From NCBI GenBank assembly GCA_042408215.1, contig JAYFMW010000012.1, positions 28,248 through 92,247 on the forward strand: a stretch of 64,000 nucleotides of DNA, given 5' to 3'. Origin of the DNA: Microcoleus sp. GTDB taxonomy: Bacteria > Cyanobacteriota > Cyanobacteriia > Cyanobacteriales > Microcoleaceae. Shown here piece by piece: positions 2,600 to 45,284 of this stretch (its first letter is position 1; each line of letters opens with the position of its first letter). A program made the translations under genes and the position numbers. The notes below the pieces were generated by a model. It was not told the origin of the DNA and made no database searches. It saw only the letters and a program-made list of their open reading frames with translations.

Positions 2600-3847
2600 A
2601 TGCAGCTAGTTGAAAAGCACATTATCGATCGAAACCACTGGCTATACAAGCAGCTAGATAATTTGTGCTTTCTTTCTAAGAATCTTTTCAACTACGCTAA
2701 CTACCTGATTCGACAAAAATTTATCAGCTCAGGAGAATACCTCGACTATTACAAAATACAGAAACTATGTCAGGGAACGACTGACTATCTAGGATTACCA
2801 GCCAAAGTATCTCAGCAAGTATTATTGAGATTATATGAAAGCTGGAAATCATTTTTTGCAGCTACCAAGGAATATAACCTCCATCCAGATAAATTCAAAG
2901 CCAGACCCAAAATACCCAGATACAAACACAAAACATTAGGCAGAAATGTCCTGACTTACACCGCTCAAGCCATCAGTAAAGAATGGCTCAAGAAAGGAAT
3001 CATCAATCTCTCTTTGACCGACATATTTCTGACTACTAAAGTTAGCGAATTAAATCAAGTCAGAATCGTTCCAAAAACTTACCATTACTCGATGGAGGTA
3101 GTTTATGAACCCAAGGATGTAACTCAATCATTATCAGGTGTTGAAGGGATAGCGGGGATTGATATTGGCCTAAATAACTTAGCGACAATTACATCCAATC
3201 AAAAAGGGTTTGTCCCGCTGATAATAAATGGCAAACCGCTCAAATCAATCAATGCCTACTCTCACAAAAAGAAAGCAGACGTGCAGTCCTACTTGAAGGG
3301 GGAGAAAAAGACATCAATCAAAATTGAACAATTAACTCACAAGCGTAATGTAAAAGTAGATAATTACCTGCATAATGCAAGTCGATTCATCATCAATCAT
3401 CTGGCAGCTAACCGAATCGGGACACTGGTGATTGGTAAAAACGATAACTGGAAACAGGGAATAAATCTCGGCAAGCGGAATAATCAGAACTTCGTAGCAA
3501 TACCTCATGCAAGGTTTATTGAAATGCTAACTTATAAAGCGCAATTAGCAGGAATAGTTGTGAAGGTTATTGAAGAAAGTTACACTTCAAAGTGTTCTTT
3601 TTTAGATAATGAACCTTGTGTCAAGCATTCAGAGTACAAAGGTAAACGAATTAAGCGAGGTTTGTTTCGTGCTGGTGATGGCAGACCGATCAATGCGGAT
3701 GTGAATGGCAGTGCTAACATTGTCAAAAAAGCATTTCCCAACGATGAAGCTGAGGGAATACAGGGCGTATTAGTACCTCCGGTAAGGGTCACACCTTACA
3801 AAATGGTTGCCCGAGGCAAGTGTAATATTTGCCTAGAAAACCTGTAA
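2600..3847 (+). mobile_element. tnpB: IS200/IS605-family TnpB (RNA-guided endonuclease), no TnpA nearby
   Basis: RuvC-I GIDIGLNN, EESYTSK, RuvC-III NADVNGSANI; upstream hairpin ACTCGTCCCC-GGGTGACGAGT at about 2498-2523. Confidence 0.9.
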
Positions 3848-6337: not shown

Positions 6338-7852
6338 CTATAAAATCGATCGGGCGATGCTGAAGATGGTAGCAGCCAAACCTGCGGCGATCGGAATTGT
6401 CACTAGCCAAGCCGAACCAATGGAGAGCAAAGTTTGAAAACCTACAGATTTCCAACCTTTGACAATTCCGACTCCGACAACTGCACCGACTAAAGCGTGG
6501 GATGTCGAAACTGGCAAACCCAAGCGGGATGCTAGCAAGACAGTAGCAGCGGTGGCTAATTCAGCGCAAAATCCGCCACTGGGTTGCAGTTCAATTATGC
6601 CTTCGCCGACTGTAGCAATTACATTTTTGCCCCAGATGGACAAACCGACGACAATTCCCACACCTCCGAGCACTAAAATCCACAGGGGAACGCTGAAATC
6701 TGATTGGGGAAAGGAACCTGTGCGGCGGATATAGGCGATCGCAGCGAGGGGAGCAACGGCATTACCGACGTCGTTGGAACCGTGGGCAAATGCCACAAAA
6801 CAGGCACTTATGACTTGAAATCGCGCCATTTGTTGCTCGATGAGAGAGTGGGGGAGTGGGAGAGTGGGAGAGTGGGAGAGGGGGGGAGTGGGAGAGAGTG
6901 GGAGAGTGGGAGAGTGGGAGAGGGGGGGAGTGGGAGAGAGTGGGAGAGTGGGAGAGTGGGAGAGGGGGGGAGTGGGAGAGTTTGTACCTATTCCTTCTTC
7001 CTTGTTTGTACCCTGAGCGAAGTCGAAGGGCTTTCTTCCTTCTTCCTTCTTCCCTCTTCCTTCTTCCTTCTCCCCTGCTGAACTTTGTGAAGCATCTGCT
7101 AATTTTTTCCAGCTAATTTGGGTAAGGACGATCGCCCCAATACCCCCAATGCCAATCACAATATCGTGAACCGGAATATTCCACCCTAATCTATCCTGTA
7201 CAAGGGCGATCGCTCCTGTCTGCACGAAGGCGACATCAACAACAGAGGGCAGTACAATGATCCCAAATATGCTCAGCACTGCTGCACTCAGCCAAGGTAT
7301 CCACTCGCGCATTTGATCTAAAGGATCAGGTCGATCGAGAATCGAATACTTTACTAAACTGTAAAATAGGGAGGCCACAGCACCACTCGCTACCGGTGTC
7401 GCCAGCCAAGTTAGGGAAATAGTGCCGATAGTTGGCCAGTCAACAGCACCAATTCCGGCGGCCACCCAGCTAAAACCCGCGATCGCGCCTACAACCGCAT
7501 GGGACGAAGAAACCGGCAAACCCCGACGAGTAGCGATTTGCAGCCACAAGCCGCAAGCTATCAGCACTGACACCATCCCAATTAAAAATACTTGTGGCTG
7601 GGCTGCGAAGGCTTCTGCATTCACCACTCCTGTTGCCAGAGTTTCGGAAACTCCTTTGCCAAACAGCACCGCACCCGCAAACTCCAGTATGCCTGCAACA
7701 ATTATTGCCTGCCGCAGCGTTAGCGCTTTTGAGCCTACGGATGTTCCCATCGAGTTAGCGACATCGTTAGCCCCCAAATTGGCAGCGACGTACAAGGCAA
7801 GTGCAGCAATCGCCGCCAGTTGCAGAAATTCGCCCCCAGAGGTATTTAACAT
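6338..7852 (-). CDS. Inorganic phosphate transporter, PiT family, with in-frame repeat insertion
   Basis: GANDVANSMGTSVGS and HGSNDVGNA PiT signatures; likely start MLNTSGG at 7852 rather than 7999. Confidence 0.9.
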   Translation of the reverse strand: MLNTSGGEFLQLAAIAALALYVAANLGANDVANSMGTSVGSKALTLRQAIIVAGILEFAGAVLFGKGVSETLATGVVNAEAFAAQPQVFLIGMVSVLIACGLWLQIATRRGLPVSSSHAVVGAIAGFSWVAAGIGAVDWPTIGTISLTWLATPVASGAVASLFYSLVKYSILDRPDPLDQMREWIPWLSAAVLSIFGIIVLPSVVDVAFVQTGAIALVQDRLGWNIPVHDIVIGIGGIGAIVLTQISWKKLADASQSSAGEKEEGRGKKEEGRKPFDFAQGTNKEEGIGTNSPTPPLSHSPTLPLSPTPPLSHSPTLPLSPTPPLSHSPTLPLPHSLIEQQMARFQVISACFVAFAHGSNDVGNAVAPLAAIAYIRRTGSFPQSDFSVPLWILVLGGVGIVVGLSIWGKNVIATVGEGIIELQPSGGFCAELATAATVLLASRLGLPVSTSHALVGAVVGVGIVKGWKSVGFQTLLSIGSAWLVTIPIAAGLAATIFSIARSIL

Positions 7853-7981
7853 AAATTTTTTTTGACATAAAACGGGCAGTTCGATATATGATAAGAGATT
7901 GTGAGTTTTAGTAAATCCCGTCAGTAACCCAGCCCTCTCATAGACTGGGCTTGTAAGATTAATCAAGCAAGCCATACTGAC

Positions 7982-8161
7982 CAAGAAACAGGGATACAAG
8001 CCCCGTCCTTCTAGGACGACTTTAAGCTAAAATTGAGAAAAGTCGGGATGGGGAATCGCCACGACTCTAAACGGGCGCAGAGACAGAGTAAGACTACTCC
8101 GGTAGCATCAGTCGGTGAAGCGTCAAGAATCACCGCACCGACCGGGCGGTGAGTATTTCAA
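7982..8161 (+). mobile_element. Non-autonomous IS200/IS605 MITE (left-end hairpin + omega-RNA-like right end)
   Basis: CAAGAAACAGGGATACAAGCCCCGTCCTTCTAGGACG left end; ends GAAGCGTCAAGAATC...TCAA; homologous to 47108-47291 and 55467-55649. Confidence 0.75.
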
Positions 8162-8394
8162 CAGACAACCTAGTAATAGGTAGTCGTCCCAAGGGTTGAT
8201 TAACAGTAAGACTTTTTCTGACATTTGCTAACAATCACTTACATTTGCCCGAGGTCTTTATGGCACTGTAGAATGAATTTAGCCACTCGGATTTAGGTGA
8301 AAAACCTTGGTAGTAAGCAACCTCTATCTAAATAAGTTGCCTCTACAGTATCAAAGCAAATAAAATCAAGATTGGCTAAATGCGGTCACGGGAA

Positions 8395-8908
8395 AACCAA
8401 GCTGAACGCTCATAGTACAAGTGCTTGTAGAGATTTCTACGGGCATTGGTTGATACGCCTTAGTTGAGAACTGAGCTCAACTTATGTATTTGTTAGCAAA
8501 CGTTAGCAAAAAAGGATCGGTCACGACACCTCGGAATGCGACGCTAGTTCCCCGTTCTGTCGCTTGTGATTAAACAGTTTTAAGGTCACTGAAACAGTTT
8601 TGCAAGCCGGCGCAAGCCCAGATAACCAGGTCGAAGCGAACATTACCCCTCTGAGGGAGGCTCAATTGAGCAAACCGTTATGCGTACAGGATTGTGAGAT
8701 TTGAAGTGAGAATTGCGATGCACCCTCGCGTAGCCGAGTCCCACTTTCATTGCATTACACTCATCACACCGAATCCAGCAATCCTCGTGTAATGGAGAAA
8801 ACATTCAAGGCGGTTAAAACCGCACGTGCGATGCCCTTCCTCGTAGTCGAAGGGTCGTTTCCCTCTCAGGTCTAAAGACTCTGAGTTTCCCACTTACCGA
8901 GTTTAGTT
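8395..8908 (+). ncRNA. ORF-less HEARO/IscB omega-RNA-like element with IS200/605-type 3' end; 5' boundary uncertain
   Basis: HEARO-like motifs GACACC..GGAATGC..CTAGTTCCC..CTGTCG..TTAAACAG..AACAGT..CAAGCC..ATAAC..CGAAG..AACATTACC; terminal hairpin CTCAGGTCTAAAGACTCTGAG followed by ATGA. Confidence 0.7.
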
Positions 8909-9292
8909 ATGAAAGGCGCAGAAATAATCCGCTCTCTTGAGACGGAAGAAATAGAGAGAGTCAAGGTAGAACTCAGCAAAGTGCTCCCCGAAATTTACGT
9001 CGGCGACACTGTGCGAGTCGGTGTGAAAATTAAAGAGGGCAACAAAGAACGGGTTCAGCCCTACGAAGGCACTGTGATTGCCATGCGTAACGGCGGAATT
9101 AATGAAACTATCACTGTTCGCCGTGTGTTTCAGGGCGTCGGTGTGGAACGGGTGTTTTTGATTCACTCGCCCCGCATTGCCACTATCCAAGTGATGCGAC
9201 GCGGGAAAGTCCGCAGAGCAAAACTGTACTACCTGCGCGATCGGATTGGCAAAGCCACCCGCGTCAAACAGCGGTTCGATCGAGCTCTGTAG
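8909..9292 (+). CDS. rplS: 50S ribosomal protein L19
   Basis: [34 protein letters not shown]. Confidence 0.98.
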
Positions 9293-9423
9293 GAATGCAC
9301 CCAGGCTATGCCTCATGGGGAAATTGGAAATTGAGAAATTTCCCAAAAAAATTTCCTATTTACGAGCGCACTGTGTTAGAATAGAAATCTAGAGGTTAAG
9401 CAACTCTTTGCAACCTCACCTGT

Positions 9424-9496
9424 GCGCTCTTAGTTCAGTTGGTAGAACGCAGGTCTCCAAAACCTGATGTCGGGGGTTCAAGTCCTCCAGGGCGCG
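9424..9496 (+). tRNA. trnW: tRNA-Trp (CCA)
   Basis: GCGCTCT/AGGGCGC acceptor stem, anticodon loop CTCCAAA, GGTTCAAGTCC T-arm; canonical position before secE. Confidence 0.97.
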
Positions 9497-9848
9497 CTGA
9501 ATCACCAAAACTTAAATTCTGCCCGAAAGCGCCCGGATTATTGGCCCACAGCAGCCAAAACCGCAAGCTTTCGGGTATAATTAGTTTTTGGGGATGGTTC
9601 AATTTTTTGTCAAAGAGAAGCCACCAACAAATTCTCGATGTGGCATCTCGATTCTCGGTATCTTGATGATCAGTACCGTCGATCGCTTGTTGACACTCGG
9701 ATGGGTTGGGCTTGTAAAGTGGTTGCTTTGGATTTAAGATTTAGAATTGCGCCGGAGTGGTTAGTGTCAAAAAATCTGAGCCCCGCTCGCCACTCACACA
9801 ATCTCAAATCTCAAATCTCAAATCTTAAATCGCAAGGGGGATTCAATT

Positions 9849-12218: not shown

Positions 12219-12264
12219 AAAGAATACTAATTTCTGTCTGCTCGTCATAGCCTAATTCAAAATC

Positions 12265-12415
12265 AATAAGCTGAAGACCGCAGGTGCCGATCGCGCTTAA
12301 TTTCCTGCCGAGGCTGAAGAACTAAAAACTCAAGACTAAAGATTAAAAATTTTCGATTTTTAATTCTGAATTCTTAACTTTTAATTCTCTGCCCCGGCTC
12401 GAAGGTCGGGGTTTT
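12265..12415 (+). promoter_or_regulatory. Ribosomal protein L10 leader (rplJL autoregulatory RNA)
   Basis: GAAGACCGCAGG...TTAATTTCCTGCCGAGG motif and hairpin CCCCGGCTCGAAGGTCGGGG-TTTTT upstream of rplJ. Confidence 0.75.
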
Positions 12416-12458
12416 TGATGGTCAGTTTTCGATCATCCTTAAAGGAGGTGAAATAAGT

Positions 12459-40857: not shown

Positions 40858-43800
40858 GCCGCAATTAACCTAAATCCCTATCAGGGATTGAAACATGGGA
40901 GTTGATACACCGCCCGGATCGGATAAGTTGGGCCGCAATTAACCTAAATCCCTATCAGGGATTGAAACATGGGGCAAACCAGAGAAATCCCTGAACGTTT
41001 GCCCAAGGCCGCAATTAACCTAAATCCCTATCAGGGATTGAAACGATGTACTGGATATACATTAAGCAATTGCTAAAGGCCGCAATTAACCTAAATCCCT
41101 ATCAGGGATTGAAACGATTATTTGCCATCAGTGGCCATCAATAAAATTCAATGCCGCAATTAACCTAAATCCCTATCAGGGATTGAAACCGATGTTGACG
41201 ATCGTATCGCCATCTACCTAGACTCTTTCTGCCGCAATTAACCTAAATCCCTATCAGGGATTGAAACTCCGTCATTACAAAGGAATCATCCTTTGATGAT
41301 TGCCGCAATTAACCTAAATCCCTATCAGGGATTGAAACTAGCTAGTTCGAGCGTGATTCGGTGCCGCAATTAACCTAAATCCCTATCAGGGATTGAAACA
41401 AAGATGAAATTAAGATGCTTGAGTGCATCGCCGCAATTAACCTAAATCCCTATCAGGGATTGAAACTAGCCCGTCAAAAATTCTTGGGAATAGACCTTTC
41501 TCGCGCCGCAATTAACCTAAATCCCTATCAGGGATTGAAACGCGGAACAACTCGGTACAGGGACAAGTGGAAGCCAGATGCCGCAATTAACCTAAATCCC
41601 TATCAGGGATTGAAACTGGCGTAAGAATAATTTTGCAATTAACTTGACCTTTTGCCGCAATTAACCTAAATCCCTATCAGGGATTGAAACTCAAAATACG
41701 GGACAATATCTCAGGCTTTTTGCTCAAGCCGCAATTAACCTAAATCCCTATCAGGGATTGAAACTAAGGTGATACCAAACTCTTCAGCCGTTTCTCGTGC
41801 TGAGCCGCAATTAACCTAAATCCCTATCAGGGATTGAAACGTAGGCATTTATTTAAAGTGTACTTTTTGTTTTTGCCGCAATTAACCTAAATCCCTATCA
41901 GGGATTGAAACTTACCATCTCCGTACTAAGAGCTAGCGCGGTACTTTCGCCGCAATTAACCTAAATCCCTATCAGGGATTGAAACGAGCTTGAGTTGCTT
42001 GAGCCTTGCGATGATAAGAATTTTCGCCGCAATTAACCTAAATCCCTATCAGGGATTGAAACATATACCTCGGATCTGAATTCCCTAATCTGGCAATGCC
42101 GCAATTAACCTAAATCCCTATCAGGGATTGAAACGCTGAAGCCAATGCTACCACTGGCAATGGGATGGGCCGCAATTAACCTAAATCCCTATCAGGGATT
42201 GAAACTTACGGCACCGCCTTGCGTAAATCTTGGTTGGATACTCCCTAGCCGCAATTAACCTAAATCCCTATCAGGGATTGAAACCCTAAAACTGTCGCAG
42301 AGCCCGGAGTATATAAAATGCCGCAATTAACCTAAATCCCTATCAGGGATTGAAACCATCCTCTAATTGCTGATCGCGATCATAGGGCTGGCCGCAATTA
42401 ACCTAAATCCCTATCAGGGATTGAAACGTGGTGAATTGCAAGCGCAGCAATCTATCCCAGGATGCGACTGCCGCAATTAACCTAAATCCCTATCAGGGAT
42501 TGAAACGTTTTTAGCTTCCCAGTGACCTCTCACTACCGCGGCCGCAATTAACCTAAATCCCTATCAGGGATTGAAACACTCAGTACATGGAAAGACGCTT
42601 CTAGCCTGGTTAATGCCGCAATTAACCTAAATCCCTATCAGGGATTGAAACCTATTTGCTTGACTTACCAATTCAGGTGGTAATTGCCGCAATTAACCTA
42701 AATCCCTATCAGGGATTGAAACGTTCAAAGACTTATACCCTGCGGCGACCCCGCCGCCGCAATTAACCTAAATCCCTATCAGGGATTGAAACGGCGACCC
42801 GTGGGATCAAGAGCCACTTCCCGGCGTTCGTGAGCCGCAATTAACCTAAATCCCTATCAGGGATTGAAACTAAACAGCCATCGTGCTCTACTTTCCCCAA
42901 AATGCAAGCCGCAATTAACCTAAATCCCTATCAGGGATTGAAACTGGTTCATTTGATTACTCGTTACGATCGCGGGGTGCCGCAATTAACCTAAATCCCT
43001 ATCAGGGATTGAAACAAAGTTGAAAATGCCAACGACGGCACACTTTCTTTTTGCCGCAATTAACCTAAATCCCTATCAGGGATTGAAACTGGTCGGAGGC
43101 ACCCCAATCGGGTAGGTAATTATTGCCTCGAAGCCGCAATTAACCTAAATCCCTATCAGGGATTGAAACGGATCGATGCCCAAGTTCAGTAAAAAGAATT
43201 TCAAGCGCCGCAATTAACCTAAATCCCTATCAGGGATTGAAACGATTAAATGTACCAATTGGAATAATTGACCTTCGGCCGCAATTAACCTAAATCCCTA
43301 TCAGGGATTGAAACTGTGAATTCCTCAGCCACAATAGTTAGAGGCTCAAATTGCCGCAATTAACCTAAATCCCTATCAGGGATTGAAACTCTCTAAGTTT
43401 GTATCGCCGCTCAATTTCCTTCTCGCCGCAATTAACCTAAATCCCTATCAGGGATTGAAACATAAAGTGGTTGTTGTCGGGACTTTCTGGGGCTGGGCCG
43501 CAATTAACCTAAATCCCTATCAGGGATTGAAACCGGGATTGGACTTAGCTAGGGCTTTTAGCCATTTGCCGCAATTAACCTAAATCCCTATCAGGGATTG
43601 AAACAATTACTCAAGCTCTCTGATCTACAGTCGGATATTTTAGCCGCAATTAACCTAAATCCCTATCAGGGATTGAAACTGGAAGTGATTGCCCATTGCT
43701 CAAACCAACAGCGTGCGCCGCAATTAACCTAAATCCCTATCAGGGATTGAAACGATACAAAATGGGGAGGTAGTAGCCCCGGAATTCCTAGCCGCAATTA

Positions 43801-45284
43801 ACCTAAATCCCTATCAGGGATTGAAACCGCAGAATTGGCCGCTTTAGGCCCTGCACAAGAAGAGCCGCAATTAACCTAAATCCCTATCAGGGATTGAAAC
43901 TGTGAATTCCTCAGCCACAATAGTTAGAGGCTCAAATTGCCGCAATTAACCTAAATCCCTATCAGGGATTGAAACTCTCTAAGTTTGTATCGCCGCTCAA
44001 TTTCCTTCTCGCCGCAATTAACCTAAATCCCTATCAGGGATTGAAACGCGAAAGCAGCCTCACGACAAATGTTTGAGCGATGCCGCAATTAACCTAAATC
44101 CCTATCAGGGATTGAAACAATACAAGTGCTACTGGTACCGCTACGGAAGCTGTGCCGCAATTAACCTAAATCCCTATCAGGGATTGAAACTAGTAGCCTG
44201 CGACGCGACGGGTCTGTACGCCCAGCTGCCGCAATTAACCTAAATCCCTATCAGGGATTGAAACTCTGTGTCACGGGCGATCTCAGCCGGGATATCCGCA
44301 TCGCCGCAATTAACCTAAATCCCTATCAGGGATTGAAACGACGCCCCGTGAAATGAAAGTTATGGAGGTGATTGGCCGCAATTAACCTAAATCCCTATCA
44401 GGGATTGAAACAATTTCCGCTGTAGGGCGACTTGGGCAACTTCGTGCCGCAATTAACCTAAATCCCTATCAGGGATTGAAACCGGTACTTACCTTGTGAA
44501 CCTACCGCAATTATTGCGCCGCAATTAACCTAAATCCCTATCAGGGATTGAAACAGGAGACTTGAACGCCTGGGGAGTGAGTTTAGTGGCCGCAATTAAC
44601 CTAAATCCCTATCAGGGATTGAAACCTAAAATCACATATTAAGAATTTATTGTTAAATTGCCGCAATTAACCTAAATCCCTATCAGGGATTGAAACTAGC
44701 AATGCAGGTAGAGACACCTCAAGGTTTAGCAATGCAGGGCCGCAATTAACCTAAAACCCTATCAGGGATTGAAACTCCCGGCACGACTGAGAACTCATGA
44801 ATTCACAGGGGGCCGCAATTAACCTAAAACCCTATCAGGGATTGAAACTCTTCTGCTTCATTTGGATCAAAGCCATCTCGAAGCCGCAATTAACCTAAAA
44901 CCCTATCAGGGATTGAAACGTAATGGGATACCGATTACATTAAGCAAGTCATTAATCAAGCCGCAATTAACCTAAAACCCTATCAGGGATTGAAACGAAA
45001 TTGCCACTGCTGCCGACCTCCCGACACTCGTGCCGCAATTAACCTAAAACCCTATCAGGGATTGAAACCAAAATGCCTGCAAGTATCCATTACTCGCACC
45101 TACGCCGCAATTAACCTAAATCCCTATCAGGGATTGAAACTAAGAACAGGTGCATCCGTGATTTTTGTAGAATCGCCGCAATTAACCTAAATCCCTATCA
45201 GGGATTGAAACTTCAATTTTCATCGCTACAAACCCGGCGGACTAATTGCCGCAATTAACCTAAATCCCTATCAGGGATTGAAAC
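40858..45284 (+). CRISPR. CRISPR array, 61 repeats of 37 bp GCCGCAATTAACCTAAATCCCTATCAGGGATTGAAAC, 60 spacers (manual count); type I-D-like repeat
   Basis: Repeats read directly; hairpin AATCCCT-ATC-AGGGATT; 3' ATTGAAAC handle; no cas genes in window. Confidence 0.98.

Follow-up and report, generated by a model that had tools for sequence, protein, structure and literature searches.

A protein-less HEARO/IscB element directly before the rplS start codon of a Microcoleus genome, and the start-codon siting of its family

The window, that is, the whole stretch of 64,000 nucleotides of Microcoleus DNA analysed in this study, carries an intact rplS gene (ribosomal protein L19) with a mobile element inserted directly in front of its start codon. 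The flank matches of relatives abut at window positions 7919/8909, which defines an insertion of 989 bp exactly between rplS and its conserved upstream leader. In empty alleles the target reads AAATCCC/ATGA (the slash marks the junction), and no bases are duplicated in the filled one. The specific 4-nt target ATGA, which forms the first bases of rplS and adjoins the last base of the element (8908), is therefore derived from the host and was already present in the empty alleles. The insertion is a protein-less HEARO/IscB element of the IS200/IS605 family, of which 481 nt are its own sequence and 508 nt belong to two nested elements, revealed by BLAST against the window's own genome (G000). An earlier note on this DNA had recognized an ORF-less HEARO/IscB element at the rplS start. 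The type of element, the N/ATGA site, the intact gene, the lack of an IscB ORF after the scaffold and the direct passage from the element into ATGA all agree with our results; the boundaries do not, given that the element starts at 7920 and not at about 8395, and that the inserted leader measures 989 and not about 500 nt. All features are listed in Table 1.

Table 1. Features at the rplS locus (window coordinates).
Feature	Position	Strand	Remarks
Native rplS promoter-like motif, TTGACA-19 nt-TATGAT	7862..7892	+	Predicted
Native rplS 5' leader, separated from the ATG by the insertion	7893..7919	+	Immediately precedes ATGA in empty alleles
Whole insertion, protein-less HEARO/IscB IS200/IS605 element with two nested elements	7920..8908	+	Flanks abut at 7919/8909 in relatives
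HEARO/omega-RNA 5' domain, GTCAGTA...TACTGAC stem and two inner hairpins	7920..7981	+	Fold z -3.0; profile positions 1-63
Insert A, protein-less IS605/TnpB-type mini-element	7982..8161	+	After TGAC, ends TTCAA; closest full copy 97% (contig C6)
Short HEARO segment between the inserts, 3' side diverged	8162..8193	+	Aligns with sibling C17:257533
Insert B, IS607-family mini-element bounded by GG, 328 bp	8194..8521	+	Edge uncertain by about 2 nt
HEARO/omega-RNA 3' core	8522..8646	+	Well-aligned part of the RF02033 match; profile positions to 220
Long imperfect hairpin, at the place of iscB in full elements	8685..8791	+	Fold test; holds a micro-insert of about 23 nt
IS200/IS605-type end	8810..8908	+	Hairpins 8810-8823 and 8865-8885, micro-insert of about 26 nt, T-rich tail
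rplS (L19), intact	8909..9292	+	TIGR01024, 151.8 bits

The omega-RNA scaffold of the rplS copy is split. At the gathering threshold Rfam reported no HEARO in the window; the HEARO model search proposed in the earlier note did return a match to RF02033 at 8459-8646 (E 2.7e-12), whose 63.7 bits stay under the gathering score of 83 and whose alignment is good only from about 8520 onward. True HEARO sequence at the locus is confined to the three segments given in Table 1, the first of which starts with GTCAG and adjoins the core in uninterrupted copies. A profile built from 60 genomic HEARO copies (sequence-only, not a covariance model) matched the DNA as it stands in two pieces of 24.4 and 103.7 bits and, with both inserts skipped, in a single match over positions 1-220 of 133.5 bits. 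Therefore, the low Rfam score is explained by the splitting of the omega-RNA by the two inserts. Of the HEARO motifs previously placed at about 8420-8650, those in 8522-8646 are genuine and the sequence at 8395-8520 lies inside the IS607 mini-element. The GGAGG and the ATGCGT stub behind the scaffold are also present, at 8656-8660 and 8680. We considered the stub as a remnant of iscB and rejected it, as the two motifs are 19 nt apart and this ATG opens only 5 codons, while the sibling IscBs start with MSN 6-7 nt behind GGAGG. A contiguous scaffold with a transcribed 5' guide was not found at the locus, the breaks lying at 7981/7982 and 8193/8194; one insert interrupts the central helix, the 5' strand of which has also diverged. 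In addition, the rplS copy has a long end branch (0.27) in the element tree and carries four secondary insertions. It is probably a dead passenger that is now decaying.

Insert A has 52 genomic matches at E≤1e-5, itself counted. Most copies with its left end sit behind TGAC, and many of its 3' matches lie behind coding ends of frames judged TnpB-like by eye. The TGAC-type 5' target, the TCAA right end and an end common to tnpB elements assign it to the IS605/TnpB mini-elements. Insert B has four other genomic copies with 97.6-98.8% identity and unrelated flanks, and an element that encodes a MerR-HTH/serine resolvase and TnpB has the same right end. The GG ends of insert B, the lack of a duplication and the ends in common with an element carrying a serine-recombinase TnpA place it in the IS607 family, whose members show these traits (PMC13565253, main text); it differs from them in being a 328-bp protein-less derivative nested in an omega-RNA. 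Both inserts are of kinds that excise cleanly, so that the scaffold could be restored. A joint of 8182 to 8519 in the DNA run X2 fits a paralogous copy and not the rplS locus. Two related micro-inserts starting with GCGATGC, absent from siblings, were also observed at about 8714-8737 (about 23 nt) and 8828-8853 (about 26 nt), and we take them to resemble small dispersed repeats of filamentous cyanobacteria.

With respect to the 3' part, the long imperfect hairpin already described by the earlier note was supported by folding (-32 kcal/mol, z -3.1, with 1 of 200 shuffles equally good) and is a feature of the family, since it is also found in sibling copies. The IS200/IS605-type end has its counterpart behind intact iscB genes at C3:408570 and C8:37060. 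The terminal hairpin previously noted is present at 8865-8885, and the RNA folding of the 3' end is weak (z -0.97 and -0.30).

The genome encodes the functions on which such an element would depend. It contains 70 HEARO matches, 64 of them over the cut-off and with sister copies of up to 168 bits, and 20 Y1_Tnp matches, of which 19 exceed the cut-off. The search for an intact iscB with matching ends, suggested by the earlier note, yielded two genes for 423-aa proteins (NF040563, 462 and 468 bits; C3 and C8) that end in the left end of the rplS element, and one of the two belongs to the same 11-member clade of the element tree as the rplS copy. The element thus has the traits of a non-autonomous IS200/IS605 member (ISC/PATE): it is protein-less, has dispersed copies, shares its subterminal hairpins with the protein-coding members of the family and has Y1 transposases elsewhere in the genome. 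The window itself holds a gene for a 415-aa TnpB with OrfB_IS605 and Cas12f1-like TNB domains at 2600-3847, and a long CRISPR array of 56 repeats at 40858-45284 that matches Rfam CRISPR-DR5.

The promoter-like motif upstream of the native leader was not called by a consensus promoter scan (16-18 nt spacing). Its -10 region is conserved in 24 of the 24 relatives shown, and 23 of them have the -35 box either unchanged or with one base altered. With a transcription start near 7899, the native leader would be an omega-RNA guide of about 21 nt. The evidence on expression consists of contigs from three RNA runs and one DNA run, which carry no information on strand, start or level. RNA run X8 gave contigs at 8050-8650, 8623-8886 and 8872-9712 with 4, 0 and 0 differences, the last of which comprises 37 letters inside the element and continues through rplS and trnW; those of RNA run X16 cover 8080-8808, and RNA run X17 derives mainly from another strain. 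Neither X8 nor X16 has locus-specific cover at 7400-7945, although the absence of RNA cover at 7400-8000 is no proof of silence. The DNA run X2 covers 7400-8027 with zero differences. Cover from about 8050 would fit the -10-like TAAAAT of insert A (8028-8033) or a drop in cover over a structured 5' end. The contigs thus give a hint, and only a hint, of read-through from the element into rplS, and to this extent they are in line with the structured rplS leader suggested by the earlier note, whose regulatory role found no support. Two possible benefits of the element for translation were considered and rejected. It does not bring its own Shine-Dalgarno motif, which was found at 4 of 37 filled and 11 of 37 reconstructed empty starts (24% genome-wide), and it does not open up the start region (mean opening cost 8.0 vs 7.2 kcal/mol, p 0.65). 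The phosphate-transporter gene divergent from rplS contains a low-complexity run of PLSHSPTL-type repeats at 6840-6990.

The empty alleles that the earlier note proposed to look for upstream of rplS are the common state of the genus: the junction is empty in 73 of 79 genomes, among them the two closest relatives of G000 (rplS 98.7 and 99.5% identical), and the remaining six, G000 included, are all filled at the same ATG. The five other filled genomes carry an intact HEARO above the cut-off (135-163 bits). Four types of element occur at this site, 67-80% identical between types and 95-99% within the type of G017, G067 and G077. On a host tree of 28 genomes, built from rplS and part of the upstream pit gene, the carriers fall on separate branches and a single clade of carriers was rejected (p-AU 5e-6). 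On the element tree the rejection of a single origin of the G000 and G017 elements was marginal (p-AU 0.046), and we consider them separate because they share 76% identity and the intervening hosts are empty. At least four independent insertions at rplS would be the simplest reading of these sequences. A strict end pattern gave 241 matches in the other 78 genomes, which, spread evenly over about 2400 ATGA starts, predict 0.06 per site, and rplS has three further independent elements (Poisson 3e-5). Different elements in G000 and in a relative also seem to occupy petM, pilT and one more gene, and two other sites common to G000 and a relative look inherited (95%).

The filled alleles differ in their leaders. 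G017 and G067 have lost 19 nt of the native rplS leader, the loss reaching as far as the first base of the element, which consequently forms nearly the whole 5' leader with the guide gone; G077, with the same type of element, keeps its leader intact. The deletion lies between GTGAG and the GTCAG of the element (L001, about 1075-1085, in G017; L045 in G067). In one other genome (G014, L003), whose junction at the ATG is empty, the -35 region of the rplS promoter has given way to about 100 extra bases.

Siting at start codons is general in the family and not unique to rplS, with most members found there. A simple home-made gene caller yielded 5470 genes in G000, and ATGA occurs at 2401 starts, 14107 intergenic sites and 33504 coding sites, so that starts make up 14.5% of the harmless (non-coding) sites. 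In contrast to this share, 29 of the 42 protein-less HEARO elements with a recognised ATGA end lie at called starts, the rplS copy included (p 2e-15); the count becomes 31 with petL and petM, which are too short for the gene caller and were confirmed by profile match. The same applies to 8 of 16 iscB-bearing elements and to 8 of 9 end-only relics. TnpB-type mini-elements with the same end and ATGA target are at starts in only 2 of 10 cases (Fisher p 0.009), although this control is a small set of near-identical and probably young copies, so that age and not guide dependence could explain the contrast. A second-round end profile from 5 seeds drifted to an unrelated TnpB family, the matches of which were filtered out. 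Of the 59 rows of reconstructed empty sites, all except one have the frame closed upstream over a distance of at most 46 codons, and hence the ATGs are not internal methionines. Moreover, 13 of 18 downstream frames picked by eye match NCBIfam models from within the first ten residues, including rpsP, fusA, chlB, hisG, cobH, pntA and pcxA. No extended TAM beyond ATGA was evident.

In the relatives, 100 of the 241 junctions were sampled (the first 111 listed, minus ten at contig edges and the rplS one). Among the 70 with a HEARO, 36 start an orthologue of a G000 gene, 11 precede other long frames and 23 do neither. It must be noted that the excess depends on the background chosen. When this is limited to same-strand ATGA near gene ends and starts, the expected share of starts rises to 32, 45 and 61% at 200, 100 and 50 nt, respectively; at 100 nt the excess has a p of 0.001 in G000 and 0.15 in the relatives, and at 50 nt it is not significant (p 0.20 and 0.97). 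The habit may therefore be no more than a preference for sites that are transcribed and harmless. Several HEARO mini-elements of relatives (L053, L055, L051, L143, L107 and L070) precede genes whose N-termini we take to be like those of rplM, psbD, an allophycocyanin subunit, acpP, tig and argG.

Given the ATGA target, a start codon is a transcribed site at which the gene is spared, and the rplS leader, which would measure about 21 nt with transcription beginning where we assume, is of guide size. On this basis we propose, with a probability of roughly 75%, that the rplS element is a selfish insertion in a transcription-fed, non-disruptive niche, later crippled by two mini-elements and now a passive leader. 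The non-autonomous element would have been moved, likely by a Y1 transposase in trans, and would have landed exactly before the rplS ATGA, a site likely to be favoured in that the gene stays whole and the host promoter would transcribe the guide RNA of the element. The native leader would serve as guide for a freshly inserted element. After excision, IscB acting in trans would cut the resulting empty allele (leader plus ATGA), and the element would be regained by repair templated on a filled copy of the chromosome. Such cutting and repair would account for the accumulation of these elements at start codons and for at least four hits on rplS. In G000 the IS605-type and IS607-type mini-elements later split the scaffold; rplS would probably be made by read-through, from the native promoter or from one inside insert A, with initiation on the T-rich tail of the element in the absence of a Shine-Dalgarno motif. 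A self-protecting guide is plausible for the intact copies in G023, G046 and G077. The scaffold is intact in G017 and G067 even though the would-be guide is deleted, and thus persistence does not require guide-based retention. Overall, recurrence likely reflects a favoured landing site of a parasite rather than a regulator adopted by the host.

In a more general form, which we put forward tentatively, ATGA-targeting IscB elements may be start-codon homing parasites: the TAM would double as initiation codon, a strong promoter and a leader of guide length would supply the guide, and IscB in trans would drive the filled allele at the expense of the empty one. If so, the start codons of genes that are essential and strongly expressed, rplS among them, would be hotspots of repeated colonisation, and where the native leader is lost, as in G017 and G067, the element could become fixed in place as the sole 5' UTR and so take a first step towards domestication. 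The main rival, which partly overlaps with the selfish insertion proposed here, assigns no role in retention to the guide: start codons would be favoured at insertion, where strongly transcribed genes expose single-stranded DNA to TnpA at their 5' ends, and purifying selection would do the rest. The fading of the start excess against a tight sense-proximal background speaks for it, as does the persistence at starts of guide-less copies and end-only relics, and whether IscB elements are "preferentially generated or preferentially retained" at such sites is left open in the preprint of Meers et al. (bioRxiv 10.1101/2023.03.14.532601). We consider it somewhat unlikely, as a pure targeting bias would not predict the scarcity at starts of TnpB-type elements with the same left end and target.

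The earlier note had also suggested a domesticated regulatory RNA for the rplS-trnW-secE-nusG region. The RNA contigs, which cover 8050-8886 and link on into rplS and trnW, are in line with this, as is the reduction of the leader to little more than the element in G017 and G067, and recurrence could reflect positive selection. Nevertheless, a cis-regulatory leader would be conserved at the orthologous site, and here 6 of 79 genomes are occupied, by four unrelated elements, with the closest relatives empty and the rplS copy decaying; furthermore, a terminator scan called none at the 3' end of the element, and the element adds no occlusion of the rplS start (3.6 vs 3.9-5.6 kcal/mol). Domestication of the rplS copy is therefore highly unlikely. 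The self-protecting orphan guide of the same note fares slightly worse: it would need the inserts to loop out or be excised from a copy whose 5' domain and 3' core are still recognisable and which has an intact IscB within its clade, yet 508 nt from two mobile elements interrupt the scaffold at two points, one inside the central helix, and the cover of X8 and X16, weak as this evidence is, would leave out the guide and the 5' domain. An IStron-like loss of the element from the mRNA, through splicing or processing that restores the native leader, would explain tolerance at essential genes and is most improbable, since Rfam gave no match to group I or II intron families and no 7919-to-8909 splice or excision joint appeared in the contigs of the three RNA runs and the DNA run, which by their nature cannot show absence.

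The type of element, its target and its dependence on functions in trans have already been published. ISC transposons with an N/ATGA target, such as ISC1-1_MA of Microcystis aeruginosa, were described by Kapitonov, Makarova and Koonin (2016; PMC4810608), and the rplS element shares with them the 5'-GTCA terminus, the insertion upstream of ATGA without duplication, the subterminal hairpins and the TnpB-type partners with the same end in antisense orientation; it differs in lacking iscB and in its nested inserts. The term "start codon" is absent from the main text of that article. According to the text of the preprint by Meers et al. (bioRxiv 10.1101/2023.03.14.532601), transcription of the guide of an IscB omega-RNA has to come from outside the element, and IscB elements show a bias for transcribed sites that arises either at insertion or through retention. 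The IscB elements and PATEs of Geobacillus stearothermophilus described there resemble the rplS element in being protein-less, in encoding an omega-RNA with a 5'-flank guide, in using the nuclease and TnpA in trans and in the bias towards transcribed sites. As reported there, that bias concerns orientation relative to the upstream gene, and not the occupancy of the start codon of the downstream gene or the repeated targeting of one essential gene. Compared with the HEARO RNA of RF02033, the rplS copy has a similar 3' core and differs in being split and under the gathering score. IStrons and homing group I introns are alike in the selfish occupancy of a conserved site at an essential gene with little apparent cost (PMC13565253, main text), although the rplS element has no ribozyme, showed no splicing and is harmless by landing just outside the reading frame. 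Start-codon occupancy was not found in our literature searches or, by term, in the main texts of PMC4810608, PMC13565253 and PMC9755519, and its novelty is accordingly provisional.

These results indicate that an RNA-guided transposon family, by targeting the start codon, can occupy essential genes with no need of splicing, and that the replacement of housekeeping-gene leaders by mobile RNA is routine in these cyanobacteria. Within one genus, the rplS alleles form a natural series (empty, intact with guide, intact with the guide deleted, and broken by nested inserts), with which it can be tested directly whether IscB elements are preferentially inserted or preferentially retained. Elsewhere in the window, the L10 leader before rplJ (12253-12426) exceeds the Rfam model by an insertion of about 40 nt. 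Finally, an end-only relic before hisG (C6:923549 in G000, equivalent to L036; also L080, L118 and L121) was found in four genomes with 89-96% identity, and it is a better candidate than the rplS copy for a fixed and possibly co-opted leader.
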